A stretch of DNA of 64,000 nucleotides, taken from contig OZ024740.1 of NCBI GenBank assembly GCA_964016885.1, forward strand, positions 178,684,001 to 178,748,000. The letters run 5' to 3'. A program made the translations under genes and the position numbers. Each line of letters opens with the position of its first letter. Positions within the stretch are counted from its first letter, which is position 1. Below are positions 1-58,404 of this stretch, one piece after another. Below the pieces are notes generated by a model. That model saw only the letters and a list, made by a program, of their open reading frames with translations, ran no database searches and was not told the DNA's origin. Origin of the DNA: Eledone cirrhosa. Its lineage: Eukaryota.

Positions 1-3000
1 CCTTTCAGCAAATGTACTGGGGGGCAGCACTTCTCTCTCCACCCTCACCTTCCTTTCCAAGTGAAACTTGAAAAAGTTCATGAGGGATTGGCCGAAGAGA
101 AAAGTGTCTGTCTTCAGTCCTTTCTACCTCGTCCACCATACAACCTCTTTCGCTACTGCCACCAGACAGAGGAAAATTGCCTGACCTTCCTGGCCAAAAG
201 AAGGCGGTGGGTCGATCTTCACTATGGACTCGGCCGATAGCCGGATCCGTTCTACACGCGACAACAGCTCTTCAACATAACTCCACAAGTCAGTAATGCA
301 CGGACACTGGACGAGTGCGTGCAGAACGGTTTCGTCGCTCTGCGCGCATCTCGGGCAGGTCCGTCTGACAGCACTTCCGTGCCTGTAGAGATTATCTCGA
401 ACCGGCAGTGTCCCCCGGTAGCACTGCCAAGCGAGGGATTTTTGGAAATTATCCATCGTCCCCGGCTCGAAAGTCCTCCGGTACAGACTGGTTAGTTCGA
501 CTTCGTTGACTCCCAGAGCCTCTCCGAGTGCGTCGTCGCACTTGCCCATCACTAATCCTCTATAGAACTCGAGAGTGGAAGTTCCACTGACCGCATTGCC
601 CGCCTGGTAGAGGGCAGTAGTGCCTGGCAACATTCCAGATGCCAGTCACCCAGTCTCGGTCTCTTCTTGACCCAGGACTGCAACTCAGTCAAAGAAACGA
701 GCTGCGGAAAGGCCCGTCTGACAAACGGCGACCACACCTATTCACCGATTAGGCAGAATATCTGGAGATGCCGCAGCCTCAGCGCGTGCCTGCGCATCAT
801 TAGCCACGGCATGCCCAGCCCACCACGTAGAGGTTGCTGGCAGCAGATGGACCGCCTCACCAGCGGAACCTGACCCCTCCACAAGAATTTGAAGAGGAGC
901 CGCTCCAAGATGGCGAGGCGCGAACGTGGGCAAGGGACGACAGTCAGACGGTAGTAGATGACGGACGCGATGTACGTGTTCGCCACCTCCGCCCGACCTT
1001 TCAGTGACAGCTTCATCCCAGCCCATTTCTGGGTGAGACTGACTACCCTGCCCGTCACCTCGTCCCAATTCTTATCCACCTGTAGGTCTGGCCCGAACCA
1101 AACCCCTAGCAACTTTACCGGTCCGTCCGTCCAGCGCCTAACGACGCTGCTGGACGGCATGGACTTGCCTCTCCAGGTGCCGAGTTGCAAGCCTACTGAC
1201 TTTTCCGGGTTAAGTTTTGCTCCCGTCAACCATTCATATTCCTTCAATAAGTTGCCGACCACCTCGATTTCTGAGGTGTCCGACACCATCACGGTGATGT
1301 CGTCCGCATAAGCCGACACAGCCTTTCCGCGTCCCGATTCGAGTGGGATGCCCTGCAACAGCTCCAGCTTCCGCAGTAAAGGCTCGAGAGTCAATACGTA
1401 CAGAAGGGAGGAGAGAGGGCACCCTTGACGGACCGATCGGGAGACCTGAAACGGTTCCGAGAGGTGGCCATTAATTTTGACCATCGAGCAGGTGCCGCTG
1501 TGCATTGCAGCGATCCAGCTTCTGAAGACGGGACCGAAGCCAGCCGCCTTGAGGACAGCCTCCAGGTACCGATGGTCGACCCTATCGAATGCTTTCGATT
1601 GATCTAAATTGATCAGAGCCCCACCGAAGCGAGGTTTACACCCTACCCTCTCTATGATGTATCGCATTAGGTGGAGGTTGTCATGTATGGACCTGGTTGG
1701 GATTGCGCAAGTTGCGCCTCCCCAACCAAATCCCCGACGACAAGCGCCAACCTCTTCGCTAACACCTTGGCCAAAATCTTAAACTCTGTTTTGAGCAGAG
1801 TTATGGGCCTGAAATTGTCTAATGTGTCCCTCTTATTCTCGTCTTTCCTTATCAGCGTCACTAAGCCACGGCTCACAGAACTGGGAATACTCCCGTTTTG
1901 CTGCCAGTTGCAGTAGAGGGCTTCGAGGAGATTGGAGAACAAGTCTGACATATTTAGGGCAGACCATCCAAACCGGGTGACTTGCGCCTCATGCAGCCTA
2001 CAAGGGCATCCTGAGTCTCGGCTGAAGTAATTGGCCTTTCGCAGCGCCCAGTGACAGCCGTCGAGAGTTGCGGCAAGCCATCGAGGTAGGGACTGAAGTC
2101 CGCCACCATCTCTGAGCCGCCACTTCCCCGGAACAACCGAGCAAAATGTTGGCGAAAGGCCTCACACATCCTCTTGGAATCGCTCAGCTCGAGCCCGTCT
2201 CGGTCCGTCAAAGACCGAATCGTGGTTTTATTACCACGCTGCGCCTCTGCCACGCGGGCCCATCCAAAAGCTTTGGTTCCCTCGTTTCTCAGAGCACGCG
2301 CCTTAGCTCTGACAATGCAACCTTCGTGTTTCGCATTGAAGAAATGGTCTAATGCTATTCTCGCCGCTATCACACCAGTTGCAATGCCACTACGAATAGC
2401 CTCGTCTAACTTATCTATCAACTCCCCCTCCTTTCCATTTTTCTCTAACGCTATCGACATTACTCTAATCTCTCTTTTGAGAGCCCCCCTCCCATCATCT
2501 ATTGTTGACGACTCCCCCTGTCAACTTTTTCTTAACTAAATTGTTGACCTGGTCCCTGTAAGCCTTACGTGCCGGAAATGACATGTTTAGCTTCCAGTAA
2601 CCAGGTCCTAACCTACGCGTCTTATCTAGGTCGACCATACAGATCACAAACTTGTGATCTGAATAGGCGACTGTTTCAAAACCTGGAGAGCTTACACTAT
2701 TTCTGACTATTTTCCTAATGAATATCCTGTCTATATACGATCTAGATGACCCTATGCGGTTAGCTCAGGTCCACACTGGCGCATTAGGGAAATCTAGTCG
2801 GTACCTGTCAGACAGTTGGAACTGGCTAATCAGGTTCTTGAGGCTTTTGCACCCCCCGCTCCTATCGGATACTCCCACACAGTCCCAGCGTGCGTCTGAG
2901 ATGCCATTCCAGTCCCCCGCTAACAGTAAAGAGCGAGACGTGCCCAGAAAGGCTTCCGGGCGTCTAAAGAAGTCCGGCCGTCCTGCCCCAGTAGGAGCAT

Positions 3001-3334
3001 AGACCGCCACCAGTCTAAAGGCACCACCTTCGTTATTGTTCACGTCCAGGACCACCAACTTCCCGTCCGGGTCCTGGAAGATCGACCTTATCTCGTGATC
3101 CAAGCCTTTCCTAAACAGCACTGCCACACCGCCACCCATTCCCGGCCGGCTAACAGATGCAAAGATCTGATAGTCGTCGAAAATGGGGGCTACTGCGAGC
3201 GTGTCGGAAATCCTGGTCTCGCTGACGGCAATTACATCCATTTCTAGAGATCTGAGGTCATAGAGCAGGTGACGCTGTTTCCAGGACGATCCCAGGCCGC
3301 GAACATTTAAACATCCTACTCTTAATACGGCCAT
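1..3334 (-). pseudogene. ORF2 (AP endonuclease, reverse transcriptase, zinc finger), broken by frameshifts and stops
   Basis: Colinear ORF pieces 2765-3334, 1954-2460, 1667-1951, 738-1667, 552-737 and 124-633. Confidence 0.92.
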
Positions 3335-3366
3335 GTTGGCAGGTTAAAAAGAGAGAGAGGAAAGGT

Positions 3367-5334
3367 TTACTTACCTTCCGGGCTCTTGTGAAGGTCGGGT
3401 TGTTCGACCTCCACAGTTGGTGGGGTTTCTTTTGGGAACCCATTTAAAAGTCTTGAAGCTGGTTTTACGTTCGGGGTTCCCACGTCCCGAGGAAAGCTAC
3501 CCCGTATTTCTTTGTATAATTCGTTCGACATTCGCACCAGAACCAAATCTTCCGGCACGCGAAATGTGCTCGATTAAAAAATTTCCCCCTCCTTTTGTAT
3601 ATTTTCACTCCGTGCTACGAGGGCCATCAGTTCCTTGTCGGCCCTCCTGACGAGCACGAAGTTTTGTATGTTTTGCTGGTGTGATTTTATTTGTTTGCGT
3701 GGCTGTGGTGGTGATGGTTTTGGGGGTGTTGTTTCGGTTGTGTCTGTGTTTGTTGTGAGTGCGGTGTCTGTGGTTTCAGATGTCTATGTGTATATTTGTT
3801 CTTGCGTCTGTTTAGGTTGTTTGCGTTTGGGGTTTCTGGTGATGGTGATGGTGGTGTTGATGTTGGTGTTATTGGAGAGATGTTTGCGTGGGTGGTGTCT
3901 GCGTTTTTTATTGTGGGTGATTTTGTGCTTTGTTGAGGTTTTTTTTCTTTTTGTGTTTCCTTTTTTGTAATTTGGAGGATTTTGGTTTTACCTCATCTTC
4001 ACTACTGGTAGATGAGGGGTCTGTGTATGTAAGTGTGTCTGTATGTATGTTTTTGGTTTTATTGGTGTGTGTATTTTGGGGGACGAGGGGGTTATTTGAC
4101 AGCTTTCCTCGTTTCTCCCCTGAGTGGTCAATATTGGTGGTGGTCTTTCTATTGGTGTTGTTATTGGTGGTTTTGCCGTTGCTGGTGTTTGTTGTGGTCC
4201 TCGCCCCGGTGTCGGCATCAGTGGAGCCTTTCTACCCCTTGCCTCTTTCAGCAGTTGAGGGGAGAAGGCTCGCAAATGGGTGTTTTCCCCACAAACAAAA
4301 CACTGCGGCCTTTTGCCTTCGGTCATAATGTGAATGACCGTCCCATTCTGAAGGCGGATGTGGTCCGGGATTGTCTTCACATTCTCGGGCCTGATCTGGA
4401 GAAGGATCTCCAGGTAAACCCCGAATCAGGCCTCTCTGGCCGTTCTGGTCACTTCTATAGGGACGGTATCTGTCCCCTCCACAATCACACATCCCAGAAG
4501 CCACCACATGTCAAGTCCTGGTGGGATTCTGGGAATGCGGAGACGGACCGTTCTTTTTCCCATGTGGGAGGGGTATATTATGACCTTGCTGGTTTTGCAA
4601 GGAGTCATAGCGTGTTTCATAGCGAGGTCTTCTGACTTGAACAACACCGAAATGTTGCCGTACTGTCTGCCCCTCTCTATGTATTCGGTGTCTTCTCTGA
4701 TGCACCTCAGCGCGACTTCGACATCTTCTTGTGGGATTAAAGCTGCCCTTTTGGTTTGTGCTGAGATGCATCTATAATGCACCGTTCTGCGCTTCACTGC
4801 CTCATTAGCTTCTACCGGGACAGTTGAGTTGGCCCAGGTTTGCTCTTGCTTGATGAGCTGCCATGCCTGGGCCAACTTTTCATCTTTGTTTGAGAGGTCC
4901 ATGTTGATGCATGGCCTATTTTTTGCTGCTGCCGCAGTGAAACTGCTGTTCTTCTTGTTTTCGTTGGGGGTGTTGTTGTCGTTGTCGTTGTTATCATTGT
5001 TGTCTTTGTTGTCACCGTTGTTCTCGGTGCAGTTGGTATTGTTGCTGTTAGTGTTGTCGCTATTTGTTTTCATGTTAGTGGTGTTGATATTGTTTTTGCA
5101 TTTGTTATTTTTTATTTTGTTATCTGTATTTTCGTTGTCGCTGTTCCTGTCATTTTTTTCAAAATTAGTGTTCTTATTGGTATCATTGGTGTCTTTGTTT
5201 ACCTTGTTTGTAGTGGTGTTTGTGTTATCAATGTGTGTTAATTTCGCTGTAGTGCTCCTCTCAACTTCTACGTCGTTGTCGCACGACAGCAGACTTATCG
5301 CTGGGGGGGGGGGGGGGGGGGGGGGCTCAGCCAT
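3367..5334 (-). pseudogene. ORF1 (Asn/Thr-rich N-terminus, RRM-like region, degenerate zinc knuckle)
   Basis: Pieces 4426-5334, 3988-4380 (CFVCGENTH) and 3367-3558. The C-terminus DLHKSPxGK* is shared with the copy ending at 25452. Confidence 0.8.
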
Positions 5335-11509: not shown

Positions 11510-11945
11510 TTCATTTCATTCATTCAGCTCTACCACTCTCTGTGCAGCATAGGCCAATAACGACCCTCCACTAACGTATATGTTATTGGCTACTCTCGCC
11601 AATTCAGTTGACTTCCACTTTTCTTAATTCAACCCCAGTGTTACGTCTACAGCTGCAGCGAGGTCGGCCTTTTTCCCGCTGATCCTGCGGGTTCGAGGTC
11701 AGGGCTTGGCGTGTGGTGTTGGATGCTGGTTTCCTGAGATTTCGTCCAATCCAGCTCCACCTAACTTTGCAGAATCTGTTTTGCTACTGGTTCCTGTCCC
11801 GCTCGCTCCCACAGAACTTTGTTTTTCATTTCCCCCGGCCATTTCATGTTGTAGTTGTGCCTCAGATAGGTTTGAAGAATGTCTGGATCTTCTGCTACGT
11901 CTACGTTATTGTCTTCCAAGTTTCATATCTATATAGCAGTACCGC
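11510..11945 (-). mobile_element. RTE-clade LINE 3' fragment
   Basis: Minus translation WSWIGRNLRKPASNTTRQALTSNPQDQREKGRP resembles the RTE C-terminus. Short (TGAA)n tail. Confidence 0.75.
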
Positions 11946-12008
11946 CTTATATATATATACTAGAGTAAAGCATGCCCAGAGAATTATTTGATAATATATA
12001 TACATCAT

Positions 12009-12071
12009 GCAGGGCGGTGCCCCAGCATGGCCTCAGCCGGATGGCTGAAACAGGTAAAAGAGTAAAAGAGT
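12009..12071 (+). mobile_element. Short retroposon/SINE 3' fragment with atcat target duplication
   Basis: Absent from the opposite arm of the inverted repeat. gtaaaagagtaaaagag tail. Second copy at 39061-39121 (-). Confidence 0.8.
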
Positions 12072-12329
12072 ATCATCTCTACTCGCAATCAGCATAATTA
12101 ACCCCACAAAAAAAATCAATTAGACCAGGCTATAAGAATTAAAGGCATCTATGAAGAAACAGTAAATAGATACACCATCGCGGCGTCTTCGCGTGCAACC
12201 GCTATAGAACATCTACCCAACGTTTCGATAGCACGTGGAAATTAATTAAATACACGGTCAACCATACATAATAAGGTAAAAATTAATGTTAGAAATGCTT
12301 GTATACATACCAGGATTAAATCACTAAAT

Positions 12330-12404
12330 CCCGACCCATGGGTTTCGCTCTCTTTTGAGATACCTTATTTAAGGTTCATACTCGGGTTTAGAGCTCTTCA
12401 GGGG
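12330..12404 (-). ncRNA. Type I hammerhead ribozyme (intact core)
   Basis: CCC-CUGAAGA-GCUCU...AGAGC-GAAA-CCCAUGG-GUC^GGG. Stem III ACCCAUGGGU is palindromic. Confidence 0.85.
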
Positions 12405-13070
12405 GTAAATTCGCTAGACATATTATTTTCCGAAGTGGTCCCCGCCAAACACTAATTCAAAATGGTTGAGAACTGTGACGTGGCAGTGGTCAAGTCAGGA
12501 AGGGTGTGATTGGTTGCTTACGGCGATTGGGTTGGTTGCTAGAAAGCGCAGCCCAATATCGCCCAAATTTTTATCTCAACCTTATGGGAGATTATTAAAT
12601 ATAAATATTTACACATACACCAATTAAACAGTTACAGGTATATATGTGTTTTTGCAACCTTTGTCGGGATTTAGTGATTTAATCCTGGTATGTATATAAG
12701 CATTTCTAACATTAATTTTTACCTAATTATGTATGGTTGACCGTGTATTTAATTAATTTCCACATGCTGTCGAAACGTTGGGTAGATGCTCTATAGCGGT
12801 TGCACGCGAAGACGCCGCGGTGGTGTATCTATTTACTGTTTCTTCATAGATGCCTTTAATTCTTATAGCCTGGTCTAATTAATTTTTTGTGTGGTTAATT
12901 GTGCTGATTAGGAGTAGAGATGATGTATATATATTATCAAATAGTTCTCTGGACATCCTTTACTCTAGTATTTCGCTCTGATTAATTTATTAATTCTCCA
13001 TTGAGCCACAACGTGAAAAGTTGCAAAACCACATATATACCTGTAACTGTTTAATTGGTGTATATGTAAA

Positions 13071-13102
<32 letters not shown>

Positions 13103-13384
13103 CATAAACATTTACATATGTATGTAAGATCTCGTAAATCCCTAGGGAGTCTTAGAGGCACTATATATATAACGCGTCTCTAGGGCACTATATAACCTGG
13201 CGGAACCCATCTCACCTCCGGGCCTGAATACAGTAGATTTCTTCCAGGTAAGGATAGAGGGTGGTAAAAAGGAAGTAAGAAAGAGATATAACAGAAGGAT
13301 CGATTCCGGTACTATATTGGTAATTCTTTTATCGACCTTTATTGAATGAAAGTACACCTCACGTGAGCAGGGAATCCTTCTCGT

Positions 13385-16547: not shown

Positions 16548-19057
16548 GGGTGCGGCGAAATTTGCCCTTGACCAATTCTTCAATGCAAAGCACGAAGGCT
16601 GCGTTGTCAGAGCTAGGATGCGTGCTCTCAGACACGAGGGGACGAAAGCCGTTCAATGGGCCCGAGTGGCGGAGGCGCGTCGTGGAAGCAAAGCCACGAT
16701 CCGGTCTTTGGTGGACCACGACGGGCGCATGCTACTCGATCCCGGGCAAATGTGTGAAGCTTTTCAGCGACACTTCGCTCAGCTCTTCGGGGACAGCGGC
16801 GGGCCCTATTGAGGGATGGACTTTAGTGCCTACCTCGACGCACTGCCGCGGCTCTAGGCCACTGAGGCGGAGTGTTGCGAAAAGCCGATAACAGCAGCTG
16901 AAGTACGGGAGGCAATGACTGGCTGCACAAGGGGTAAATCGCCTGGTTTGGATGGTCTGCCCTATGAACTTTACGTACAGATGCCAGACTTGTTCGGAGG
17001 CCTCTTGGCGGACGTCTACTGCAACTGGCAACAGAACGGGAGAATTCCCAGCTCTGTGAGCCGAGGAGCGGTGGCGCTGCTGAGAAAGGATCCTAACAAG
17101 GAGGATAACATAGATAATTTCAGGCCCATAACTCTGCTAAACACAGAGTTCAAGATTTTGGCCAAGGTGCTAGCAAAGAGGTTGGCGCTTGTCGTTGGTG
17201 GTCTGGTGGGAGAAGCGCAGACATGCGCTATTCCAGACAGATCCATCCACGACAACCTCCACCTCATGCGATACATCGTAGAGAGGGTAGCTAGGGAACC
17301 TGGCACGGGTGGGTCCTTGATCAATTTAGATCAGTCGAAAGCTTTCGATAGGGTCGACCATCGTTACCTAGCGGCAGTCCTGAAGGCGGCTGTATTTGGG
17401 CCCGTCTTCAGAGGCTGGATCGCTGCCATGCACGGCGACATCTGCTCTGTGGTTAGAGTGAACGTCACCTTTCGGAACCGTTCAACATCATGCGCTCGGT
17501 CCGCCCTCTCGCCCCTCTTGTACGTATTGACTCTCGAGCCATTACTGCACAAACTGGAGACGTTCAGGGGCGTCCCGCGCGAACTAGGATGCGGAAGATC
17601 CGTGTCAGCATATGCGGACGATGTCACCGTAGTGGTGTCGAACGCCAAACACATCGAGGCGATAGGCACTACACTGAGAGAATGCGAAGCGGTGACAGGA
17701 GCAATGATCAACCAGGCAAAAGTCAGTGGGCCTGCAGCTCGGCACCTGGAGAGGCAGGTCCATGCCGTCCAACAGCGTCGTCGGGCGCTGGACGGACGGA
17801 CCGGGTAAATTGCTAGGGTTCAGGTTCGGTCCGCACCTCCAGACGGACAAAAACTGGGACGAGGTGACGAGCAGGGTGGCTTCTCTCACCCAGAAATGGG
17901 CGCAGAGGAAGTTATCCCTGAAAGGTCGAGCGGAGGTGGCTAACGCATACATAGCGTCCGTCATCTACTACCGCCTGACCGTCGTACCTTGTCCTAAGCC
18001 CCGCCTGACTGCGCTGGAGCATTTGCTCTTTCGCTTTTTGTGGAAGGGACGCGCTCCGATGGTCAGGCGGTCTATCTACTGTCAACACCCGCTACGTGGA
18101 GGGCTGGGCATGCCGTGGCTGATGATGCGCAGACACGCGCTCAGGCTACGACATCTCCACCTCTTCCTCGACGGTGATCAGGTGAGGTCGCCGTTTGCTA
18201 GACACGTATTTCCCCAGCTCGTTTCCTTGACGGAGCTGCAGTCCTGGGTCAAGCGTAGACCGAGAGGGAGCGCCTGGAGACTGGAATGTCTTCAGGCGCT
18301 CACAGCCCTCGACCAATCGGGCAATGTGATCGGTGGAAACTCCACCTCGGCGTTCTATAGAGGATTAGTGGAGGGGTAGAGCGACGACGTACTTGGGGAA
18401 ACTCTAGGCGTCGACGAAAATCAACTAGCCAATCTCTTCGGAAGAACATTCGGGCCGGGGCCTATGTACAACTTCCAGAAATCTCTTGCCTGGCAGTGCT
18501 ACCGAGGAGCCTTGCCAGTTCGGGATAAACTCTACAGGCATGGAGGTGCCGTCAGCCGAGCATGTCCGAGATGCGCGCAGGGCGACGAAACCGTCCTGCA
18601 CGCACTCGTCCAGTGTTCGAAAATTGCTGACTTGTGGGTTTATGTCGAACACCTGCTGTCGCGTGTAGGACGGATCCAGCTATCATCTGAGTCCATCGTG
18701 AGGATTGCCCCCGCCCCCTTCCTTTAGCCGGGAAGGGCAGGAAGTTTTTATCTGTCTGGTGGCCATGGCGAAAGAGATAGTATGGTGGACACGTTTGAAA
18801 GGGCTGAAGACGAGCACTTACCTTTTCGGTGATGCCCTGATTGACTCTTTCAAATTTCATTTGAAAAGGAAAATCAGAGTAGAGAGGGAAGTGCTCTCTT
18901 CCCAGAATTTTGTTGAAAGATGGATGAGAGAAGCAAGAATGGCCCGAGTCAATGGGCCTACTCTGAGTATGTATCTGTAAATTAAAGGTAGAAAACTGGG
19001 AGAGGGCACTTGCCTTGGTGGTCAGGGTCACTGTGGCCTTTTACTGGGCTTTCTCCA
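16548..19057 (+). mobile_element. L1/Tx1-type LINE copy 2 (subfamily B), truncated at both ends
   Basis: KSPGLDGLPYE, FRPITLLN, DQSKAFDRV, YADD, CPRC..HALVQC. Stop at 18980, then a short UTR. Confidence 0.92.
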
Positions 19058-22000
19058 TAAACTGGAAAGTTTGTTGAAATGAATATCAAGCCACTACCTG
19101 CAGCCTCAGATATTCAGGACGTATCGGAGTGTTCTTCCTGTTCTCAGCAAGCATGCCTTTTGAAGCGTTCCAAAAAGCGGGGCGGGGCCAATTTTCTTTA
19201 ACCATCCCTGGAAACCTTTTGAGATAGTACCTAGAGCGCCTATGACAATCGGGACCACTTTGACTTCATAGCAGTTCCAAATCCTTTTTAAGTCCCACTT
19301 TAAGTCCTGGTATCGATTAATTTTCTCCCTTCCCTTCTCTTGCACTCTCGTGTCGAATGGGCAGGCCACATCCACAATCAGGCACGATATTTTTTCCTTG
19401 TCTAGGTCAGGTCTATTGTGTTCCAGTTTCTTGTCCGTCTGTATCCTTAAATCCCACAGCACCTTCACCTGATCGTTTTCTATCACCGTCTCTGGCTTAT
19501 GCTCATACCACATCTCAGAATGTGGTAAATTGTTTACTTTGCATAGTTGCCAGTGGATCACCCTGCCCATCACATCATGTCTCCAGCCTTTATAGTGAGT
19601 CTGAGCTAGATGTTTACATTCGGATACAATGTGAGCCACAGTCTCCTCTCTCTCTCCACAGATCCTGCATAGTGGGCTAACCTCCTCCTTGTAAATATGG
19701 TGTTTCAACCTCTTCGTTTTGAGGGCCTGCTCTTGCGCAGCCATTAGCATTCTTTCTGTAGCCTTTTTAAGGTCTCCTCTTTTCAACCAGTTCCATGTCT
19801 GTGGATCTCTGAATTCAGTTTTCTCAAAGAAGGTACCATGAAGGGATTTTTCATGAAGGTTGCTCTTTCTCCTTGTTATTTCCTCGTTGGACATCCCCTG
19901 GACTATTGTCCTCTCCTTCAGTACAATTCTGAGCATTGGCTCCTTACTATCAGTCAGATATTTGTGTAGGTTGTTTTTCTCCATCTGAACACAGTCCTCT
20001 ATTCTGATAAGACCTCTTCCACCTTCAGATCTCCTTCTTCAGTGTCAATTTCCTTTATCATCTCACCTATTGGTACCTGGATTCCGTTGCTTCTCCTCAA
20101 TTTACCCCTCTTCATCACAAAGACTCCACACTTACTAATACCAAATTGCTTACATATATCATTGCTGAAAATACGAACAGTGTCAACAAGCACATCCAAC
20201 ACCTCCTCACTCTTCCCGAAGAGCTTAAGATCGTCCATGAAGAGGTGATTGATGGTAAGCTCTCCCTTTCCCAACTTGTATGCTGCTCTCACTTTTCGCA
20301 GTATAATGGTCAGGGGCATCAGGACAAGCACAAACAACAGAAGGGACAGACTATCTCCCTGGAAGATACCTGTCTTGATCTTCACGCCTCCCAAGGATTC
20401 TCCAGCTGATGTTAACTCTGTTTACCAGGTCTTCACAACTTGCTCAACAACTGTCTGATGTTATCTGCCACCTTGAAGATCTCTAGGCTTTTGGTGATCC
20501 AAGAATGAGGCTCCATGTCAAATGCCTTTTTTTAGTCTATCCATCCCATGGCAAGACCAGTGTGTCTCCTCTTGCAATTCCGCATTACCATCTTATCAAT
20601 AAGTAACTGGTCCACGGGACTTCTTTCGGCATCCTTTCTGTTCGTTCGGTAACAAGTTGTTTGTGCGGAAGTGATGGTAGATTTCCTCAGACACAAAGCT
20701 TGTCACCAGTTTCCACATTACGGACAGACATATGATAGGTCTATAGTTGGTAACATCATTACCCTTGATTCGGTCTTTCATTACCAGAACTGTGGTACCT
20801 TTTGTCCACCACTCTGGTACCTCACCTGACATCAAGCAGTCATTGAATATGGTTGTCAGTTTCAGGTGGAGGGGTGTTATATTTTTAATCCAATACCCCT
20901 GCACACCATCTGGGCCTGGTGATTTCCAGTTGTTTAGTTTTTTGGCCTGCATCTTAAAAGTTTCAACTGTGATACTCAAATCAGTTTGTTGGTGTGCCTG
21001 TTCACTAATCTCCTTTTGTACTGTCTCAATCCACACTGCCTGGTCATTATGTTTAACATCCTGCTCCCATATTCCTCTCCAGAATGTCTTAGTTTGTTCC
21101 GCCTCAGGGATCAAGTCGTTGCCTCTTTCTTTCCCTTAAAGCTGTCCAAACAACCTCATCTGGTTGTTGTCAAACATGCGATTCTCTCTACACTGACAGA
21201 CTCTGCTCTCGTATCGCCTAATATTTGCACTCGTTGCTACAATGCGTTGCTTCAGTTCCTCTATGATAATATTTAGCTTTTTCCTCCTACTTTTGTACTT
21301 TATTTCCAGTCTATTTTTAGTGTTTATGTTTTTTAATGTCCCATTCAGTAGGGACTCAAGCTTTCCAATGTCATTTCTCATTTCCCTGATTTGACCATTC
21401 CGTCGTTTCTTGTTTGTTGTTTCCTCTCGCTTTTATGCCAAGTAATTTCCTCGCCGCATTTTCTGTTGCTTTGGAGATATTGTTGCACTGGTGAAGGCTC
21501 CTCGCCTCAAGGTATGGGATGACTTTGTTTACCTTAGCTGTTGTCTCTTTTAACTTTTTCCTGTCTATAAATCTTAGGTTCATAGGTTTCCCACTATCAT
21601 TGTTCAATTCATCTACCACTTAGTTTAGGATATCAACCAAATCTTCTCCTATCCCATCAGTATTCATTTCCTCAATGGCCGTATCTTTGTTCCAGGTATT
21701 ATTTATTTCAGCATTCAGATCATTGTCTGCTTCGGGTGGTTCCTCCGTTCTCTCAACCTCTTCACCTTCATTTCTCACTGGCTAGTTTGCCTGGCATACT
21801 CCACGCTCCATTTCCAACCTAATCTCTCTGCTCAGTTCCTCCAGTTCCAGCTCGCTTATCCACCCATTAGTTCTTATTACCCGAGCCTGCCCGGCCAATT
21901 TTTGTTCATCTAATTTAAATAGACCAATCTCGTTCCAGATGTTATGCTTCCGTTTCCTATAGCCTTTTTCTTTGGGGTTACTCTTCAGGTAACATTGCAA

Positions 22001-23695: not shown

Positions 23696-25452
23696 ATGGA
23701 TATTTTCGACCTTGAAACGGTAAACAACGTTCAGTTCAAAAGTTTAAAAGAAGCCACTGTAGATTTCACCAAGACTACAACGGCTACAGTCATGCCTGTC
23801 GTCCACTCTACTGAAGGTGAAGGCAAAACTCAAAAGCTACCATCACAACCTTCTGTGTTAGCAGCAGTATCATCTGAAAGCGACATCAACACCACTACCA
23901 CCGCCGCCACCGTCACCCCCGCCGCCACCACCACCACAACAACAACAACTCAGAGCAATAACGACAATAACACCGACAGCTTCAATGTAAACACGGATGG
24001 CGGTGGCAAGAGCAACAACAAACAAAACAACAACAACACCAATAACAACAGCAAGAATGACAATACGAACAACAAGAGCATCAGAAGAACCTATTTGCTG
24101 CAGCAGCAGCAAAAACAAAGCGCTTATTGGATTTTGATATTAGCGATAAAGACGAATAGTTGGCCCAGGCATGGAGGATAATTAAACGGGAGAAGTCCTG
24201 GGCAAACCTGACCATCCCGGACGGGGCAATAGCGGCCATGCAAAGGAGGGCGGTGTACTTTCGATGCATTTCGGTGCAGACACGAAAAGTGAAACTTGCC
24301 TGACAAACAGAGGTCGAGGCTGCTTTGGAGTACATCGGAAGTAACATAGAGTATAAATCAAGAGGCAAACAATTCGGTACCATCTCGGTACTGTTCAAAA
24401 CCGAGGCCCTTGCTATTAAGCTCTCGGTGACCTCCTGCAGAACGGAACGCATTATCATGCATCCGTCCTACATGGGTAAAAGGACAGTAAATGTCCGCAT
24501 TCCCACCATCCCACCATCTCCTCAGCGTAAAAATACAGGGGGTTGCAAACCTCCTTTGTTGCCAACGCCAGTGTCAGCACGGAAAGCTGCACCACCACCA
24601 CCAAAAACAACACCAACAAAGACACGGAGACCAACATCAAAAACAGCCGGATCACCACCAACACCAAAACCAATCCAAGGGGAAAACGAGGAAAGCTCTC
24701 CCACTCCCCCTACCCCCCCCCCCCAATTATACACTTAGACAAAACAATAAACGCACACACAGACACAGAGACACTCACAGCCACAGACCCTTTGTCTTCC
24801 CTTCCAGCAGCAAAGATGAAGGAAAACCCCAAAACGCAAAAAAACAGAGAAAACTCGCAAAAAAAAAAAAGCCACAACAAAACACAAAATCATACACAAC
24901 AAAAAATACAGACACCACTAACGCAAACACTTCCCCAATAACATCAGCACCAACAGCAACATCGACACCGCCCCACAATCCCCGAAACGCAAACAATCTA
25001 AACAAACACAAGTACAAATAAACACACAAATACCTGAAATTGCAGACACCACACCTACAACAAACACAGACATACCCGAAACAACACCACCAAAACCATC
25101 ACCACCACAGTCACCAAAACGAAAACAAATAAAACCACACCAACAAAATGTTAAAAACTTCGTGCTTGTCAGAAGGGCCAACGATAAACTGATTGCTCTC
25201 TTAGCACGAAGCGAGGACATTCAAGCAGAGGGGGAGATATTTAAAATGAGCACATTTTGTGTGCGAGAAAATTTGCTTCTGGTCCGAATGTCACTCAATT
25301 CCTTCAAAGAAATTCGAGAGAGCTTTCCTCCAGACGTGGGAACCCCGAATGTGAAACCCACATCGAGACTTTTAAAGGGGTTCCCAAAAGAAACCCCACC
25401 AACCATGGAGGTCGAACCACCCGACCTTCACAAGAGCCCGGTAGGTAAGTAA
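23696..25452 (+). pseudogene. Tx1 ORF1, frameshifted, zinc-knuckle segment deleted
   Basis: HPSYMGKRTVNVRIP and the C-terminal GFPKETPPT..DLHKSPVGK match copy 1. Confidence 0.8.
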
Positions 25453-25481
25453 ACCTTCCCTCTCTCTCTTAGCTTACCAAC

Positions 25482-28400
25482 ATGGCCATATTAAGTGTAG
25501 GAAGTTTAAATGTTCGTGGCCTGGGGGTCACCCTGGAAGGAAGGTCGCCTGCTCAACGACCTCAGGTCGTTGGAAATGGATGTGATTGCCGTCAGCGAGA
25601 CCAGAATTTCCGACACGCGCGCACTAGCCCCCAATTTCGCCGACTATCAGATCTTCGCATCTGTTAGCGGGCCGGGAATGGGGGGTGGTGTGGCAGTGCT
25701 GTGTAGGAAAGGACTGGATCTCGAGGTAAGGTCGATCTTCCGGGACCCGGACGGTAAGTTGGTGGTCTTGGATGTGAGCAGTAGCGAAGGTGGTGCCTTT
25801 AGAGTACTGACCGTCTACGCCCCTACAGGGGCCGGACGACCGGACTTCTTTAGGCGCCTGGAGACCTTTCTGGGTACGTCTCGCCCTTTACTGTTAGCGG
25901 GGGACTGGAATGGCATCTTATACGCACGCTGGGATTGTGTGGGAGTAGCCTATATAAGCGGGGGGTGCAAAAGCCTCAAGCACCTACTCAGCCAGTTCCA
26001 ACTGTCTGACAAGTATCGACTAGATTTTCCCAATGTGCCAGTATGGACATGGACCAACCGAATGGGGTCATCTAGATCGTATATAGATAGGATCTTCATT
26101 AGAAAAATAGATAGAAATAGTGTAGGCTGCCCACGTTTTAAAACGGTCGCCTATTCAGATCACAAATTTGTGATCTGTACGGTCGACCTAGATAAAACGC
26201 GTAGATTAGGACTGGGTTACTGGAAGCTGAACATGTCATTTCCGGCTCGTATGGCTTACAGGGACCGAGTCAACAATTTAGATAAGCAAAAGTTGACAGG
26301 GGGGATCATCAACAACAGATGGTGGGGGGCTCTCAAAAGAGAGATTAGAGTAATGTCGATAGAGTTTAGCAAAGAACTAGCGTTAGAGAAAAACAGAAAG
26401 GAGGGGGAGCTGGTAGATAAGTTAGACGAGGCTATTTGTAGTGGCATTGCAACTGATGTGCTAGCGGCGAGAATTGCATTAGACCAATTCTTCAATGCGA
26501 AACACGAAGGTTGCATTGTCAGAGCTAAGGCGCGTGCGCTGAGAAACGAGGGAATCAAAGCTGTTCGATGGGTCCGCGTGGCGGAGGCGCAGCGTGGTAA
26601 TAAAACCACAATTCAGTCTTTGGCGGACCGAGACGGACACGAGATAAGCGATTCCAAGCGGATGTGTGAAGCCTTACGCCAGCACTTTGCTCGGTTGTTC
26701 GGGGAGAGTGGCGAGTCAGAGAGAGTAACGGACTTCAGTCCCCACCTTGACGGCTTGCCGCGCATCTCGACGGTCGACGCTGAGCTCTGCGAAAGGCCGA
26801 TTACTTCAGTCGAAATTCAGGATGCCCTTGTTGGCTGCATGAGGCGCAAGTCACTCGGTCTGGATGGCCTGCCCTACGAGCTTTACGTAAATATGCCAGA
26901 CGTGTACTCCGATCTCCTCGAAGCACTCTACTGCAACTGGCAGCAGAATGGTAATATTCCCAGTTCTGTGAGCAGGGAGTGGTGACGCTGATAAGGAAAG
27001 ACGAGAACAAGAGGGATACATTAGACAACTTCAGGCCCATAACTCTGCTCAACACAGAGTTTAAGATTTTGGCCAAGGTGTTAGCAAAGAGATTGGCGCT
27101 TGTCGTCGGGGATTTGGTTGGGGAGGCGCAAGCTTGCGCAATACCAGCCAGGTCCATACACGACAATCTCCACCTAATGCGATACATCATAGAGAGGGTA
27201 TTGTGTAAACCTGGCTTCGGTGGGGCACTGAACAATTTAGACCAATCGAATGCATTCGATAGGGTCGACCATCGGTATCTGGAGTTTGTCCTCAGAGCAG
27301 CTGGCTTCGGCCTTGTCTTCAGAAGCTGGATCGCTGCAATGCACAGCGGCACACGCTCGGTGGTCAAGGTTAATGGCCACCTCTCGGAACCATTTCGGCT
27401 CTCCCGGTCTGTCCGTCAAGGGTGCCCTCTCTCTTCCCTTCTGTACGTATTGACTCTAGAGCCTTTACTGCGGAAGTTGGAGCTGGTGGAGGACATCCTG
27501 CTCGAACCGGGACGTGGAAGGGTGGTGTTGGCTTATGCGGACGACATCACCGTGATGGTGTCGTACACCTCAGAGATCGAGGTGGTCGGCACCTTATTGA
27601 AGGAATATGAAAGGTTGACAAGAGACAAACTTAACCCGGAAAGTCGGTGGGCTTGCTGCTCGTAACCGGGAGAGGCAGGCCCATGTCGTCCAACAGCGTC
27701 GTGGGGCGTGGGCGGACGGACTGGTAAAGTTGCTCGGGGTTTGGTTCGGACCAGACCTCCAGGTGGAAAAGAATTGGGACGAGGTAACGAGCAGAGTAGC
27801 CAGTCTCACCCAAAAATGGGCTGGGAGGAAGCTATCACTGAAAGGTCGCACGGAGGAGGCGAACTCGTACATCGCGTCCGTCATCTACTACCGCCTGACC
27901 GTCGATCCTTGCCCCCGGCCGCGCCTCGCCAAGTTGGAACGGCTCCTCTTCAAATTCTTGTGTAGGGGGTAAGTTCCGTTGGTGAGGCGGGCCATCTGCT
28001 GTCAGCACCCTCTACGCGGAGGGCTGGGCATGCCGTGGCTAATGATGCGCAGAAATGCGTTGAGGCTGCGACATCTCCAGATAATCTGCCACAACAATGA
28101 ACAGGTGTGGTCGCCGTTTATCAGACGGACCTCTCCGCAGCTCATTTCTTTGACTGAGCTGCAGTCCTGGGTCAAGAAGAGACCGAGACTGGGTGACTGG
28201 CACCTGGAATGTTGCCAGGCATTCACTGCCCTCTACCAAGTGGGCAATGTGATCAGTGGAACATCCACTCTCGAGTTCTATAGAGTATTAGTGGTGGGAA
28301 GTGCGATGACGCACTCGGAGATGTTTTGGGCCTCGACGCAGTCGAATTGACCAGCCTGTACCGGAGGACTTTCGAGCCGGGGACGATGGATAATTTCCAG

Positions 28401-28897
28401 AAATCCCTCACTAGGCAGTGGTACCAGGGGGCGCTGCCGGTTCGGGATAAACTCTACAGGCACGGAAGTGCTGTCAGACGGACCTGCCTAGGATGCGCAC
28501 AGAACGACGAAACCGTTCTGCACGCACTTGTCCAATGTCTGTGCATTACTGACTTATGGAGTTATGTCGAACAACTACTGTCGCGTGTGGAACGAATCCG
28601 GCTATCGGCCGAGTCCATAGTGAAGATCGACCCGCCGCCTTCCTTAGGTCAGGAAGAGCAGGAAATTTTCCTCTGTCTGGTGGCAGTTGCGAAAGAGGTG
28701 GACCAGGTTAAAAGGACTGAAGACAGACACTTCTCTTCGGCCAATCCCTCATCAACTTCTTCAAGTTTCACCTGGAAAGGAAGGTGAGGGTGGAGAGAGA
28801 AGTGCTGCCCCCCCCCCCCAGTACATTTGCTAAAAGGTGGATGAATGTTGCGAGAATGGTTCGTGTGAATTGGCCTACTCTGACCATGCGCCTATAG
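25482..28897 (+). pseudogene. Tx1 ORF2 (APE-RT-zinc finger), frameshifted
   Basis: SLNVRGL, AGDWN, YIDRIF, YSDH, QGCPLS, YADD. Confidence 0.92.
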
Positions 28898-39060: not shown

Positions 39061-39121
39061 TATTTTACTCTTTTACCTGTTCCAGCCATCCAGCTGAGGC
39101 CATGCTGGGGCACCGCTCTTG
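39061..39121 (-). mobile_element. Short retroposon 3' fragment (as 12009-12071)
   Basis: gcggtgccccagcatggcctcagc..aacaggtaaaagagtaaaa on minus. Confidence 0.8.
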
Positions 39122-42510: not shown

Positions 42511-42528
42511 ATATATATATATATATAT

Positions 42529-43570
42529 AGATAAGTTTAGACTTTAAGATCCAAATATGTTTCGAGTTAAATAAGTGTAGGAATATCATGTCCCGCTCTC
42601 CTCAGTAAACATCCAGAGACAAATTGATATGCTTCACTTCTAAATAATTTAAAAGACTGCGTGGCGCACATGGCTTTACAGTATCTAACTAGTCTCATAA
42701 CCGTACTGCTAGAAATAACAGTCGTATATATGAGGCGGCTTTGCAGCTCAAACTAGGAGCAGATTAAAATTAATAAGGTAATGAATTCTTTTACAATGGA
42801 ATCAGCTCGAATGAGGAAAAATATCCCCTGAGCAGTGTATAAATTAATATGTATGTGATGAAACACAGATACCAACACATCTGTATATATATTGCGAAAT
42901 ACAGTTCGTCTCCGTTGATTTATTATTTTAAATCGATATGGACAAACTGTAGTATAATAATTAGTATACTTCAATCTGGCTAAATTTTTCTTTCGCGATA
43001 TATATACAGATGTGTTGGTATCTGTGTTTCATCACATACATATTAATTTATACACTGCTCAGGGGATATTTTTCCTCATTCGAGCTGATTCCATTGTAAA
43101 AGAATTCATTACCTTATTAATTTTAATCTGTTCCTAGTTTGAGTTGCAAAGCCGCCTCATATACACGACTGTTATTTCTAGCAGTACGGTTATGAGACTA
43201 GTTAGATACTGTAAAGCCATGTGCGCCACGCAGTCTTTTAAATTATTTAGAAGTGAAGCATATCAATTTGTCTCTGGATGTTTACTGAGGAAAGCGGGAC
43301 ATGATATTCCTACACTTATTTAACTCGAAACATATTTGGATCTTAAAGTCTAAACTTATCTACGGAACAGGTTTGATTTTGAAATTTAAATGTGTCTAAA
43401 CATCACGGCCTTTTGCCAATACAGTTCGTCTCCGTTGATTTATTATTTTAAATCGATATGGACAAACTGTAGTATAATAATTAGTATACTTCAATCTGGC
43501 TAAATTTTTCTTTCGCAATATATATACAGATGTGTTGGTATCTGTGTTTCATCACATACATAATAATTTA
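42529..43570. mobile_element. Non-coding element family I (520 bp period plus 370 bp inverted arm) with hammerhead-like cores
   Basis: 42529-42897 is the reverse complement of about 42992-43342. 42898-43050 repeats at 43418-43570. CUGAGGA-GAG...CUC-GAAA at 42560-42605 (-), with a copy at 43285-43330 (+). Stems I and III are imperfect. Confidence 0.8.
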
Positions 43571-44155
43571 TATATATATATATATATATAAATATACACG
43601 GGTGTGTATGATTGTGTATAGAAGATTATATTAATAAAAGGAATTCCAACTTTGTCTGATTTACTCGTTTTATTTACAATCCTTTAAAATTTATAATGGT
43701 ATTAGAATGAAATAGTATGGTAGAATATTCAATGTTAAGTGTTAATTGAACAAGTACCTTTATGCTTTCGCAATCTTCAGTTTCATATTGTGTGGTGACA
43801 GTCAAGTTTGCAAATTTCAACTGTAATGAGATGGGTCAATTTTGTGCCTTATATACAGTGAAAAGTGGCTCCAGATGCTAAATCTTGCAAACTGTATTTC
43901 GACCAATCGTTGTGTAGTTTCACTGGATTACTAAAGCTGATTGGTTTAGGCGTCACGGTTGGTTGAGCATGTCTAACGACTACTAATTTACCCTATCCAA
44001 AGCATCAATTGTTTTGTTATTTTTAGAAATGATGAAAATACCATTTTCTAGTAATCATCACCATCAACATCACTTTTATTATTATTATTATTGTTGTTGT
44101 TGTTGTTGTTGTTAGTGGTCGTAGTTAGAGTCATAGTAGGATTAATACCCCATTA

Positions 44156-44810
44156 TTATTGTTTATTTAGCTTGGATTTGAATTTATCAATAAAATTCTT
44201 TTCTTTCATTTTCCTCTTGATTTCACTTGGGCTGTGTAATTTGTAGAATGGAAATAATATAAATATTCCCTGACCACATGTTGCTAGATGCTTACTTAGG
44301 GGTATCTGACGGACATTTGGGTCTCTGATTTGCTGTCGGTGAACCCGTGCACGTTCCGATAGTGCATTTCCAGTTTGACCGACATATAGTTCTTCACAAT
44401 TCGGGCATTCAATGCAGTAAATTAGATTTCTGCTTTTGCAGTTCATATTTGCATTTGGGAATATTTTTCCAGTTTTTGTTTTCATATATTGACCGGCGTG
44501 TATGGATTGACATGTGCCACATCGACTCTCATTACATTTATATACAGTGAATGATTGGTCTTTGTTGTTAAGGTAAAACTTTGCTTTTGTTAGTAATTGC
44601 TTCAAATTTTTCGGCTGTCTTTTACTAAGAGTCAAAGATCGATCTGTGATTAAGCCTTTTAATTCATTACTTTGAGCAATGATCGGTAGGTTTGCTTTGG
44701 CAGTGTTGAAGATATTCTGGTGACATGGGTTGTGTGTCATTATAAATGGTATGACCAGTTCTTGGTTTCTTCCTCCTTGGGTTGTCCTAAGTTGTTGTAT
44801 AGGTATTTTC
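44156..44810 (-). pseudogene. Penelope linker plus GIY-YIG endonuclease domain (frame open)
   Basis: 220 aa ORF with LIY..C..C...YVGQT, catalytic R and E, and a terminal LN motif. Confidence 0.9.
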
Positions 44811-45074
44811 TTCTTCAATGGAAATAATTACATCCAAATTAGAGGCACAGCGATGGGAACGAAGTTTGCTCCCGTTTACGCGAACTCTGTAATGGGATAC
44901 TTAGAACAACAACTCTACCAAGAAATAGAGGAAAAATATAGCACTGACTTTAGAAAGTACATTGAAAAATCTTGGAAGAGATACCTTGACGACTGTTTCA
45001 TCATCTGGACAGAATTTCTAGATACTCTAGATGAGTTCAATATCCTCCTGAATAACCTACACCCATCCCTCCAA

Positions 45075-45640
45075 TGGCCCGCTGTATGCCATTTTCTATA
45101 AGTAGAGATGGGTATTTTTGTTTGAGAAAAGATTCTCTTAGTTCTGTTAGGCGTTTGTACCTGGTATTGGTATCTTCTACAATGGTACAAATTCTTCTGG
45201 TTAGGCAGTATGGGATGTTGCGTTTTGTATGAGGTGGATGGCACGACTTAAAATTCAGATATTGATGGGTGTCTGTGTGTTTATAATATATATCCGTAGT
45301 AATGGTGGTGTCGTTTTTGATTATCATTATATCTAGGAATGGTAATTTGGTACTACTCATCTCTTTTGTGAATTGGAGAGATGGGTGTAGGTTATTCAGG
45401 AGGATATTGAACTCATCTAGAGTATCTAGAGATTCTGTCCAAATGATGAAACAGTCGTCAAGGTATCTCTTCCAAGATTTTTCAATGTACTTTCTAAAGT
45501 CAGTGCTATATTTTTCCTCTATTTCTTGGTAGAGTTGTTGTTCTAAGTATCCCATTACAGAGTTCGCGTAAACGGGAGCAAACTTCGTTCCCATCGCTGT
45601 GCCTCTAATTTGGATGTAATTATTTCCATTGAAGAAGAAA
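45075..45640 (-). pseudogene. Penelope reverse transcriptase, C-terminal half and thumb
   Basis: FFFNGNNYIQIRGTAMG, RYLDD, SCHPPHTK, KYP motifs. Confidence 0.9.
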
Positions 45641-46256
45641 ATACCTATACAACAACTTAGGACAACCCAAGGAGGAAGAAACCAAGAACTGGTCATACCA
45701 TTTATAATGACACACAGAATATCTTCAACACTGCCAAAGCAAACCTACCGATCATTGCTCAAAGTAATGAATTAAAAGGCTTAATCACTGATCGATCTTT
45801 GTCTCTTAGTAAAAGACAGCCGAAAAATTTGAAGCAATTACTAACAAAAGCAAAGTTGGATCTTAACAACAAAGACCAATCATTCACTGTATATAAATGC
45901 AATGATAGTCGAGGTGACACATTGTCAATCCATACACGCCGGTCAATATATGAAAACAAAAACTGGAAAAATATTCCCAAATGCAAATATGAACTGCAAA
46001 AGCAGAAATCTAATTTACTGCATTAAATGCCCGAATTATGAAGAACTAAATGTCGGTCAAACTGGAAATGCACTATCGGAACGTGCACGGATACACCGAC
46101 AGCAAATCAGAAACCCAAATTCCGTCAGATATCCCTACGTAACCATCTAGCAAGAGGAAAATGAAAGAAAAGAATGTTATTGATAGATTCAAGCCCAAGC
46201 TAAATGAACAATAATAATGGGGTATTAATCCTACTATGACTATGACTACGACCACT

Positions 46257-46330
<74 letters not shown>

Positions 46331-46334
46331 AAAC

Positions 46335-46527
46335 AATAATAATTGTTTCTACTTTTGGCACAAGGCCAGCAAATAACCCAGTGTATTACTGGTACTTTAT
46401 TTTATCGACCCCGTAAGGATGAAAGGCAAAGTTAACCTCGGCGGGATTTGAACTCAGAATGGCAAGGGCCGTAACTCGATGCGTCAAAGCATGGTGTCCG
46501 ACCCTCTACCGATACTGCCAATTCACC
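46335..46527 (-). mobile_element. SINE family 1 inserted in the (AAC/AAT)n tract of one Penelope arm
   Basis: Absent from the left arm (44075-44115). Confidence 0.9.
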
Positions 46528-46844
46528 AACAACAACAATAATAATAATAATAAATTTGATGTTGATGGTGATGATTACTAGAAAATGGTATTTTCATCAT
46601 TTCTAAAAATAGCAAAACAATTGATGCTTTGGATTGGGTCAATTAGTAGTCGTTAGACATGCTCAACCAACCGTGACGCCTAAACCAATCAGCTTTAATA
46701 ATCCAGTGAAACTACACATCGATTGGTCGAAATACAGTTTGCAAGATTTAGCAGTCTGGAGCCACTTTTCACTGTATATAAGGCACAAAATTGACCCATC
46801 TCATTACAGTTGAAATTTGCAAACTTGACTGTCACCACACAATA

Positions 46845-46883
46845 TGAACCTGAAGATTGCGAAAGCATAAAAGTACTTGTTCA
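46845..46883 (+). ncRNA. Penelope pLTR hammerhead, G12>A degenerate
   Basis: UGAAC-CUGAAGA-U-UGC-GAAA-GCA-U-aAAA-GUA-CUU^GUUCA. More decayed mirror copy at about 43747-43785. Confidence 0.65.
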
Positions 46884-46995
46884 ATTAACACTTAACATTG
46901 AATATTCTACCATACTATTTCATTCTAATACCATTATAAATTTTAAAGGATTGTAAATAAAACGAGTAAATCAGACAACGTTGGAATTACTTTTA

Positions 46996-47076
<81 letters not shown>

Positions 47077-47080
<4 letters not shown>

Positions 47081-48062
47081 TAAAACATGTCTATAGAATC
47101 ACCAGATAAAATATATACCGTTTCCTCTCCCAATTAGCATAATTAACCATATACAAAATCAATTAGACAAAACTATATGAATAAAGGCTCCTATGAAGAA
47201 ATCTCCGACTAATAACCGAAAATAGCTTAGTCTAATTGATTTTTTATATGGTTAATTATGCTAATTGGGAGAGGAAACGGTATGTATTTTATCTGGTGAT
47301 TCTATAGACATGTTTTATGATATATAGCTCTGATTATTTAATTTATTAATTCTTCATTGAGCCACAAAGTGACCCGTTGCAAAACACATATATATTTATG
47401 ATTTATATATATATATGTAAACCTATATATGTAATAATCTCCCGTTAGGTTGAGATACAATTGTGGCTGTATTGGGCTGCGCTTTCTAGCAAAAAGCCTA
47501 CCAGCCGTAAGCAACTAATCACATCCTTTCTAACTTGACCGCTGCCACGTCACGGTTCTTAGCCATTTTTTAATGTATTCTTGGCGCGATCACTTTGGAA
47601 AATTAATTGTCTAAATTTGAGCTAACTTCCTGAAGAATCCGAAGCTCTAGATATCCAACGTTATCGGATGTCTTAAAATGCGGATGAAACCATGGTAGAG
47701 GTAATTAAATATGTACACTTTTCTTCTAGTTTATTTTACACCTAATTCTGTTTAGTTGACTGTATATCTGGTCGATTCATACATGCTGTCGAAATATTCG
47801 ATAAATAATCCGTCGTAACCGCCGCGAAGGGGATTTCTTCATAGGAGCCTTTATTCTTATAGCTTGGTCTAATTGATTTTTTATATGGTTAATTATGCTA
47901 ATTGGGAGAGGAAACGGTATATATTTTATCTGGTGATTCTATAGACATGTTTTATGATATATAGCTCTGATTATTTAATTTATTAATTCTTCATTGAGCC
48001 ACAAAGTGACCCGTTGCAAAACATATATATTTATGATTTTATATATATATGTATGTAAACAT
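47077..48062 (+). mobile_element. Non-coding hammerhead element family A, copy 2 (637 bp period plus inverted arm)
   Basis: 47223-47425 repeats at 47860-48060. 47077-47203 is the reverse complement of about 47832-47960. Shares gggctgcgctttctagc, ctgccacgtcac and cattgagccaca with 11958-13080. Confidence 0.87.
47626..47701 (+). ncRNA. Type I hammerhead ribozyme (intact core)
   Basis: CUUC-CUGAAGA-AUCCG...CGGAU-GAAA-CCAUG-GUA^GAGG. Stem III ACCAUGGU is palindromic. Confidence 0.85.
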
Positions 48063-48079
48063 ATATATATATAAGTTTA

Positions 48080-57496: not shown

Positions 57497-57620
57497 AAAA
57501 TTAAGATAAATTAAATGAATTTAATCTAAATCAAAATTATGGGTGTCATGCTAGAAAGACATGCGCCATATCACCCGGAAAATAAGCTCTAAGATTCTAA
57601 TGAGTAGGTCCGAGCATTTT

Positions 57621-58327: not shown

Positions 58328-58404
58328 TATATATATATAAATATATATAATAGTAGAACACTGGAGGGTGATATCCGTAGTAGTAGTTCATGGGACGAGT
58401 TTGG

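Follow-up and report, generated by a model that had tools for sequence, protein, structure and literature searches.

Positions 11958–13082 of the window, that is, of the whole stretch of 64,000 nucleotides of Eledone cirrhosa DNA analysed here (GenBank assembly GCA_964016885.1, contig OZ024740.1, positions 178,684,001 to 178,748,000, forward strand), hold two arms of one non-coding unit of about 680–688 nt. Self-comparison of 11900–13150 places the arms head to head within a (TA)n tract (Table 1). The unit, here called family A, is numbered from c1, the first base after the predicted cut of its hammerhead ribozyme, and the reference is a natural 2.5-unit array found elsewhere in the genome, L031, which has a period of 687–688 nt. 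Each arm ends at one of the two 3′-end sites of the family, arm 1 at the first and arm 2 at the second (the "tail"), and both ends adjoin (TA)n, a tract that would mask any target-site duplication.

Table 1. Features of the inverted family A insertion and of the sister family copy in the window
Feature	Position	Strand	Description
Shorter TA run, left side	11949–11960		
Arm 1, 5′-truncated unit	11958–12662	−	c361 to c688/c1 to ~c302
Later 63-nt insertion of an unrelated repeat	12009–12071	−	in arm 1; missing from arm 2
Type I hammerhead	12328–12406	−	stem I ACCCC/GGGAT; CUGAAGA at 12401; stem II GCUC/GAGC with long loop
Inversion junction, head to head (5′–5′)	12662–12666	.	plus arm from GTC (c686); first post-cut base is 12666
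Arm 2	12663–13082	+	c686 to c425, passing 13015/13016, the point where arm 1 begins
(TA)n target tract, right side	13075–13101	.	
Sister family A2 copy	47081–48073	+	69–76% identical; tandem/inverted anatomy as in family A; hammerhead at 47630; GUA cut 47697/47698

The plus arm opens with GTCGGGATTTAG at 12663. Over 264 nt it is 95% identical to the minus arm, read downward from 12335 to 12072, and a second matching stretch lies at 12008–11957 (94%). The 63-nt insertion in the minus arm, which was missing from the preliminary description of the locus, is flanked on both sides by a duplicated ATGAT and is 95% like window positions 39063–39119; both sequences are fragments of a very abundant short repeat. 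That description had also held that the far end of the plus arm re-enters the sequence with which the minus arm starts, which is borne out by a 94% match of 13016–13082 to 12662–12596, and its unit length of about 680 nt agrees with the non-redundant parts of the arms (327 nt + 353 nt = 680 nt); the period of the natural tandem is 687–688 nt. Elsewhere, the window carries another inverted repeat around a short palindromic centre (57616–58332, 254 nt, 96%) and several broken LINE copies with APE endonuclease, RT and zf-RVT domains, which lie in opposite orientations and are 79–95% alike (143–3753, 16858–21180 and 25066–28787).

The family A unit and its hammerhead

Family A is represented by 4,084 first-look candidate copies in its own genome of 3.0 Gb. 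Related copies also occur in two contig runs, a type of record that shows neither starts nor circles, and the repeat inserted into arm 1 has the highest depth in them. Tandem loci like L031 and L059, each with about 2.5 units and the former with two full hammerhead cores, are a small minority. In L031, the full units differ from each other by just 0.6% and have 7 rare variants in common, so that the array may be a later local DNA duplication; reading it as a rolling-circle product was rejected. The unit has no coding capacity, its longest stop-free stretch in six frames being 92 codons and its longest ATG-initiated ORF 86 amino acids. No RT or GIY-YIG ORF was found in it, and tblastn matches in loci L001–L228 are scattered remnants unattached to the arms. 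The 3′ ends cluster at c295–310 (142/258) and c413–428 (77/258), and a TA repeat directly follows 193 of these 219 ends. In a 3′-anchored sample of 93 arms, 34 join an inverted arm, 38 a TA repeat and 21 other DNA. With one hammerhead per unit, tandem units and no ORF, family A is, by sequence-level criteria, a non-LTR retrozyme, and it appears to behave like a non-autonomous Penelope-like element (PLE) of this kind.

The window hammerhead has a palindromic stem III, ACCCAUGGGU, an intact CTGAAGA/GAAA/GTC core in the minus arm, and a predicted GUC cut at 12333/12332. An Rfam scan of the whole window returned microsatellite noise and no hammerhead; scanned alone, the region gives a weak HH9 match at 12315–12416 on the minus strand (19.5 bits, E 0.076, below the gathering score). 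The minimum free energy fold of the monomer is not a hammerhead and is uninformative (z −0.74). The stem III palindrome cofolds as a dimer at −19.2 kcal/mol against −1.1 kcal/mol as a monomer hairpin, a preference like that of the dimeric type I hammerheads of PLEs and retrozymes, as far as the consulted portions of the source papers describe them (PMC4209133; PMC7229834).

Stems I–III covary across the subfamilies and across families A, A2 and A3. Stem I pairs GTCCC/ATCCC with GGGAT in family A, ACTTC with GAGGT in A2 and ATCTC with GAGAT in the third family; stem II occurs as GCTC/GAGC, GTTC/GAAC, ATCC/GGAT and GTCC/GGAC; and helix III, a short stem, is in most cases a palindrome (ACCCATGGGT, ACCCTAGGGT, ACCATGGT). 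Of 141 distinct post-cut contexts, 81 keep both CTGAnGA and GAAA, and the others are truncated or mutated. In sequence terms, the hammerhead is genuine, and its self-cleavage is predicted.

One family A subfamily (L072, L108, L109 and L133) has a remodelled ribozyme next to an unchanged post-cut sequence, with GTTCG/CGAAC in stem II, a ACCATGGTA triplet and, in several copies, an altered GAAA. Other, unrelated families of type I hammerheads with a palindromic helix III lie near PLE remnants at L254, L338:8827, L343:7485 and L354:6638.

Distribution of 5′ ends around the predicted cut

The preliminary description had proposed to map the 5′ breakpoints of genomic copies relative to the NUH site, and in family A the mapped ends do pile up at c1. 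The exact 23-mer that starts at c1 occurs 160 times in the genome, and the 100 occurrences listed yield 96 arms (98 under another merging). Nine of the 96, eight by alignment and L092 by eye, begin exactly at c1, where about 0.3 are expected from the background upstream of the cut (0.0031 ends per nt, from 79 over the 25,399 nt at risk; binomial p ~3e-11, rising to 0.002 if the background is taken to be ten times higher); one further arm is ambiguous by 2 nt of microhomology. Three of the nine starts are inversion junctions, five adjoin a TA repeat and one, L092, which carries a short local duplication, is classed as other. At L078 and L110, both arms begin at c1. Genome-wide, five A/T bases stand directly before c1, in place of the ribozyme, in 9 of the 160 exact post-cut 23-mers, three of which are new, and 15 distinct copies in all start on the exact base that follows the NUH triplet. 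Short fold-back palindromes centred on c1, as if a cDNA end had snapped back, are seen at L110:1481–1500 and L078:1484–1501.

A second sample was anchored at c267–293 and is thus blind to the 5′ end (395 occurrences, of which 100 listed sites gave 93 arms); a 33-nt mid-unit anchor found only 8 sites and was excluded as a sample. Ten of the 45 arms that reach c10 end within c1–10 (ratio 10.8, p 1.2e-7), so that the random breakpoint distribution, which the preliminary description had named as speaking against its reading, is not seen in family A. Per 100 nt at risk, ends occur at 0.08–0.38 in c34–266, 1.15 in c11–33 (14/59) and 2.34 in c1–10; upstream of the cut, the rate is 0.92 in c679–688 (3/35, two of them ambiguous by microhomology) and 0.11 in c590–678. 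About 24 of the 59 runs reaching c33 end in c1–33, against about 4 expected. Positions with at least three ends are c1 (3, all distinct from those of the first sample), c4 (4), c17 (4) and c24 (8, the largest single peak), and outside c1–24 no position has more than 2. The peaks at c4, c17 and c24 are confounded because their A/T starts can anneal to the TA repeat, which does not apply to c1, a GGG. A fixed template end followed by trimming would be expected to leave such a pattern, with surplus ends just inside c1 and an abrupt drop beyond it. Among arms longer than one unit, 2 of the 5 at risk end in c1–33 on a second passage, a number too small to show a further peak.

The cut-start copies belong to several subfamily haplotypes and have different flanks, and some are joined to inverted arms with other start points; the diversity of haplotypes and flanks therefore indicates recurrent events. 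Their distances have a median of 7.5% against 7.1%, a comparison diluted by read-through copies with mutated upstream bases. A weaker cluster of 18 5′ ends at c543–589, 100–146 nt upstream of the cut (p 0.008, uncorrected), lies just downstream of CCAAT and CACGTCA motifs and could be a transcription start of uncleaved RNA.

The copy in the window itself is less exact. Like L210, its arm 2 starts at c686 and retains GTC, 3 nt upstream of the true cleaved end. The GTC does not continue the family sequence of the minus arm, so it is most simply a read-through of the site by 3 nt, the alternative being a gain of filler or microhomology. Hence the preliminary description had the predicted cut right, but the plus arm that it started there begins 3 nt before the scissile bond, and its proposal that reverse transcription stopped at a cleaved 5′ end suits the c1 starts of family A rather than this copy. 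Moreover, 87 of the 96 arms (about 90%) extend upstream past c1.

In the sister family A2 (4,655 candidates), which has a GUA/GUC hammerhead cut mostly after GUA and two 3′-end sites as in family A, the c1 excess is not replicated. None of the first 100 post-cut sites is a cut-start, the six without the upstream 5-mer being five point mutants and one copy truncated about 9 nt upstream, and the genome-wide A/T count is 3/386, about background, compared with 9/160 in family A (Fisher p 0.001).

The excess at the predicted cut in family A likely records self-cleavage in living cells. Ends would also gather at c1 if the reverse transcriptase stalled at the folded ribozyme, or if c1 were a transcription start or a splice acceptor. 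Such a reading is consistent with the spread of ends over c1–33, a stretch that includes the 3′ strand of helix I, with the promoters and the intron near the hammerhead in PLE pLTRs (PMC4209133, on D. virilis, in the part consulted), and with the c543–589 cluster, which shows that other template features leave footprints. We nevertheless regard it as unlikely, since 15 copies start on the precise base after the triplet and A2, with the same fold, has no excess; a structural block should halt the enzyme as it meets the 3′ foot of the helix, not after the helix has been crossed, and the bases upstream of c1 are GTC, not the AG of an acceptor.

Uncleaved tandem transcripts as the only templates, as for the Anolis element PAc, would leave random 5′ ends shaped by TA microhomology, with a match to the cut by chance. 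The GTC of the window arm, the extent of read-through, the peaks at c24, c17 and c4 and the behaviour of A2 all fit this idea, but it is very unlikely, and for family A largely refuted, by the nine of 96 ends at c1, a GGG without TA microhomology, at the p values given above, and by the sharp drop in ends just upstream. We give the least credence to one or a few master loci that already start at c1, or to tandem duplication at the DNA level, in which neither the ends nor the repeats would come from RNA processing. The near-identical units of L031 and the (TA)n upstream of many cut-start copies are compatible with it; on the other side, the cut-start copies differ in haplotype and flanks, several being joined to inverted arms that start elsewhere, and most in-phase repeats are about 4% apart, resembling the inverted arms of one event.

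Templates that pass the cut

Repeats within one insertion differ by a median of 4.4% (51 direct pairs) or 4.0% (71 inverted pairs), against 6.5% to other copies; between the two arms in the window the difference is 4.2%, less than for 98% of other copies. At diagnostic sites, agreement within an insertion is 335/356 (94%) for direct and 485/521 (93%) for inverted repeats (38 in-phase direct and 71 inverted pairs), compared with 59% at random. Both arms therefore derive from a single variant in a single event, and the 5′ and 3′ units are re-homogenised per subfamily. Cycling as a monomer, through a circle or an end-to-end jump, would yield this concordance directly, whereas inheritance of a linear tandem would need an extra homogenising step, which favours a circle without proving it.

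Because arms routinely cross the unit junction, the templates must be multimeric, circular or end-joined. To this extent, the ends at the cut and the crossed junction in family A agree with the ribozyme-processed template of the preliminary description, multimeric or perhaps circular. The circularly permuted arrangement that it reported is observed, but the point from 680 to 1 is the ordinary tandem junction of the family, routinely crossed by copies; the closure of the two arms was for this reason rejected as evidence of a circle.

Among the possible forms of the read-through templates, ligated circles are the most likely, although the preference for them is tentative; uncleaved tandem transcripts are somewhat less probable, and end-to-end template jumps are rather unlikely. 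In the portions of the literature consulted, a circular intermediate has been proposed for PLEs (PMC4209133), and circular RNA has been demonstrated for other retrozymes (PMC7229834). It is conceivable, if speculative, that the genome preserves both RNA forms of a retrozyme/PLE cycle as fossils: copies stopped at the cut would derive from self-cleaved linear monomers, and allele-matched copies continuing round the unit from ligated circles on which a PLE reverse transcriptase worked in rolling-circle mode, the linear-to-circular balance of the templates being set by the strength of the ribozyme. Family A has GUC and a helix III of 4 bp; A2, which lacks the stops, has mostly GUA and a helix III of 3 bp. 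If true, the genome would thereby supply direct evidence of the circular intermediate that has been proposed, though not demonstrated, to underlie the tandem structure of PLEs.

Probable mobilization by a Penelope-like element, and related systems

From the observed anatomy, end distributions, ribozyme covariation and allele concordance we infer cleavage, a PLE partner and a possible circle. The account as a whole, in which the hammerhead unit is moved into (TA)n in trans by a PLE reverse transcriptase–endonuclease, with cleaved RNA among the templates, is in our judgement probable. Tandem or partial-tandem copies would be transcribed, and hammerheads paired through the palindromic helix III would cut at GUC to give unit-length RNA starting at c1. 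The PLE protein would nick both strands of a TA tract and prime internally at about c305 or c425; cDNA would then extend toward the RNA 5′ end, and the two cDNAs would join head to head or, by microhomology, to the target. Where the template is a cleaved linear RNA, the cDNA would halt at c1 or lose a few bases (the excess amounts to about a third of runs reaching c33), and on other templates it would cross c1 and continue round the unit.

PLEs are abundant in the genome, with 10,596 GIY-YIG candidates. The window itself carries one of autonomous type at 42528–47078, as nested head-to-head inverted fragments with an RT, a C-terminal GIY-YIG domain, TA ends and a CX4CX2C linker, which we take to be as in Neptune; a CTGAAGA core-like motif lies near 46850. 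A survey of 50 GIY-YIG loci (30 + 20 of the 10,596 candidates) and of the window PLE turned up no autonomous PLE whose pLTR matches the unit. The matches to the family sequence in L267, L346 and L355 look like separate insertions, with a TA repeat between the two in L346 (by eye).

Judging from the consulted portions of the respective papers, family A resembles the metazoan non-LTR retrozymes (Cervera & de la Pena, 2020, PMC7229834; Li et al., 2026, 10.64898/2026.07.22.740005) in that its tandem unit is non-coding and low in GC and carries a single type I hammerhead, and in that PLEs abound in the same genome. Its unit length falls within the range of 51–972 bp reported by Li et al. (2026), who already make the case for an origin of units of this sort from PLE pLTRs, and is about 688 nt compared with 170–400 nt for the retrozyme RNAs tested in 2020 (PMC7229834). 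It differs in occurring mostly as dispersed partial or inverted insertions, with at most about 2.5 units among the loci seen, and any circular RNA of it is hypothetical. Insertion breakpoints or PLE-type tails are not mapped in the consulted text of either study.

The marks of PLE insertion, according to the sections consulted, are partial tandems, an inverted 5′-truncated copy, an optional tail and a microsatellite bias (PMC8557442; PMC3846280). Family A shares with the insertions of endonuclease-bearing (EN+) PLEs (Craig et al., 2021, PMC8557442; Arkhipova et al., 2013, PMC3846280) the partial tandems, the head-to-head inverted arm, two 3′ ends, (TA)n targets, junction palindromes, microhomology and a hammerhead with a short palindromic helix III. 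It departs from them in having no ORF, no sequence-sharing autonomous element in the loci surveyed above, and 3′ ends about 117 nt apart, which exceeds the published PLE tail of 30–40 bp. The Poseidon element PAc of Anolis was shown to prime at two internal sites and on each of the target strands (Frangieh et al., 2024, PMC11167929), and family A is similar in its AT-rich target and in its presumed two-strand priming and two internal initiation sites downstream of the hammerhead. Hammerhead cleavage of PAc is dispensable in vitro, and the consulted text reports no RNA-seq reads starting at the cut (PMC11167929); in family A, by contrast, genomic 5′ ends are enriched there.

For the HDV-like ribozyme of R2, the 5′ boundary of the insertion reportedly coincides with the ribozyme cut, which is said to have been read as in vivo cleavage. 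The insertion boundary of Perere-3 twister variants likewise equals the ribozyme cut and has been interpreted in the same way (PMC8501958, part consulted). Both are autonomous LINEs with other ribozyme classes in a 5′-terminal position (PMC8501958 for Perere-3), whereas in family A the hammerhead is internal to a cycling unit and is passed by most cDNAs. The open-access literature searched showed no study in which the 5′ ends of PLEs or retrozymes were mapped to a hammerhead cut; closed journals or supplements may hold one.

The element is thus of a known kind, and what appears to be new is genomic evidence that the ribozyme cuts the template. The role of the hammerhead in endonuclease-bearing PLEs has been described as unclear (PMC8557442, part consulted), and the surplus of insertion ends at the cut, exact to the nucleotide, argues for cleaved RNA as a real germ-line template. 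PLE-type tails and inversions on a retrozyme-like unit offer mechanistic evidence for mobilization by PLE enzymes, beyond co-occurrence and homology. Finally, sister families in one genome, with and without the excess, make the question of circle versus multimer testable.
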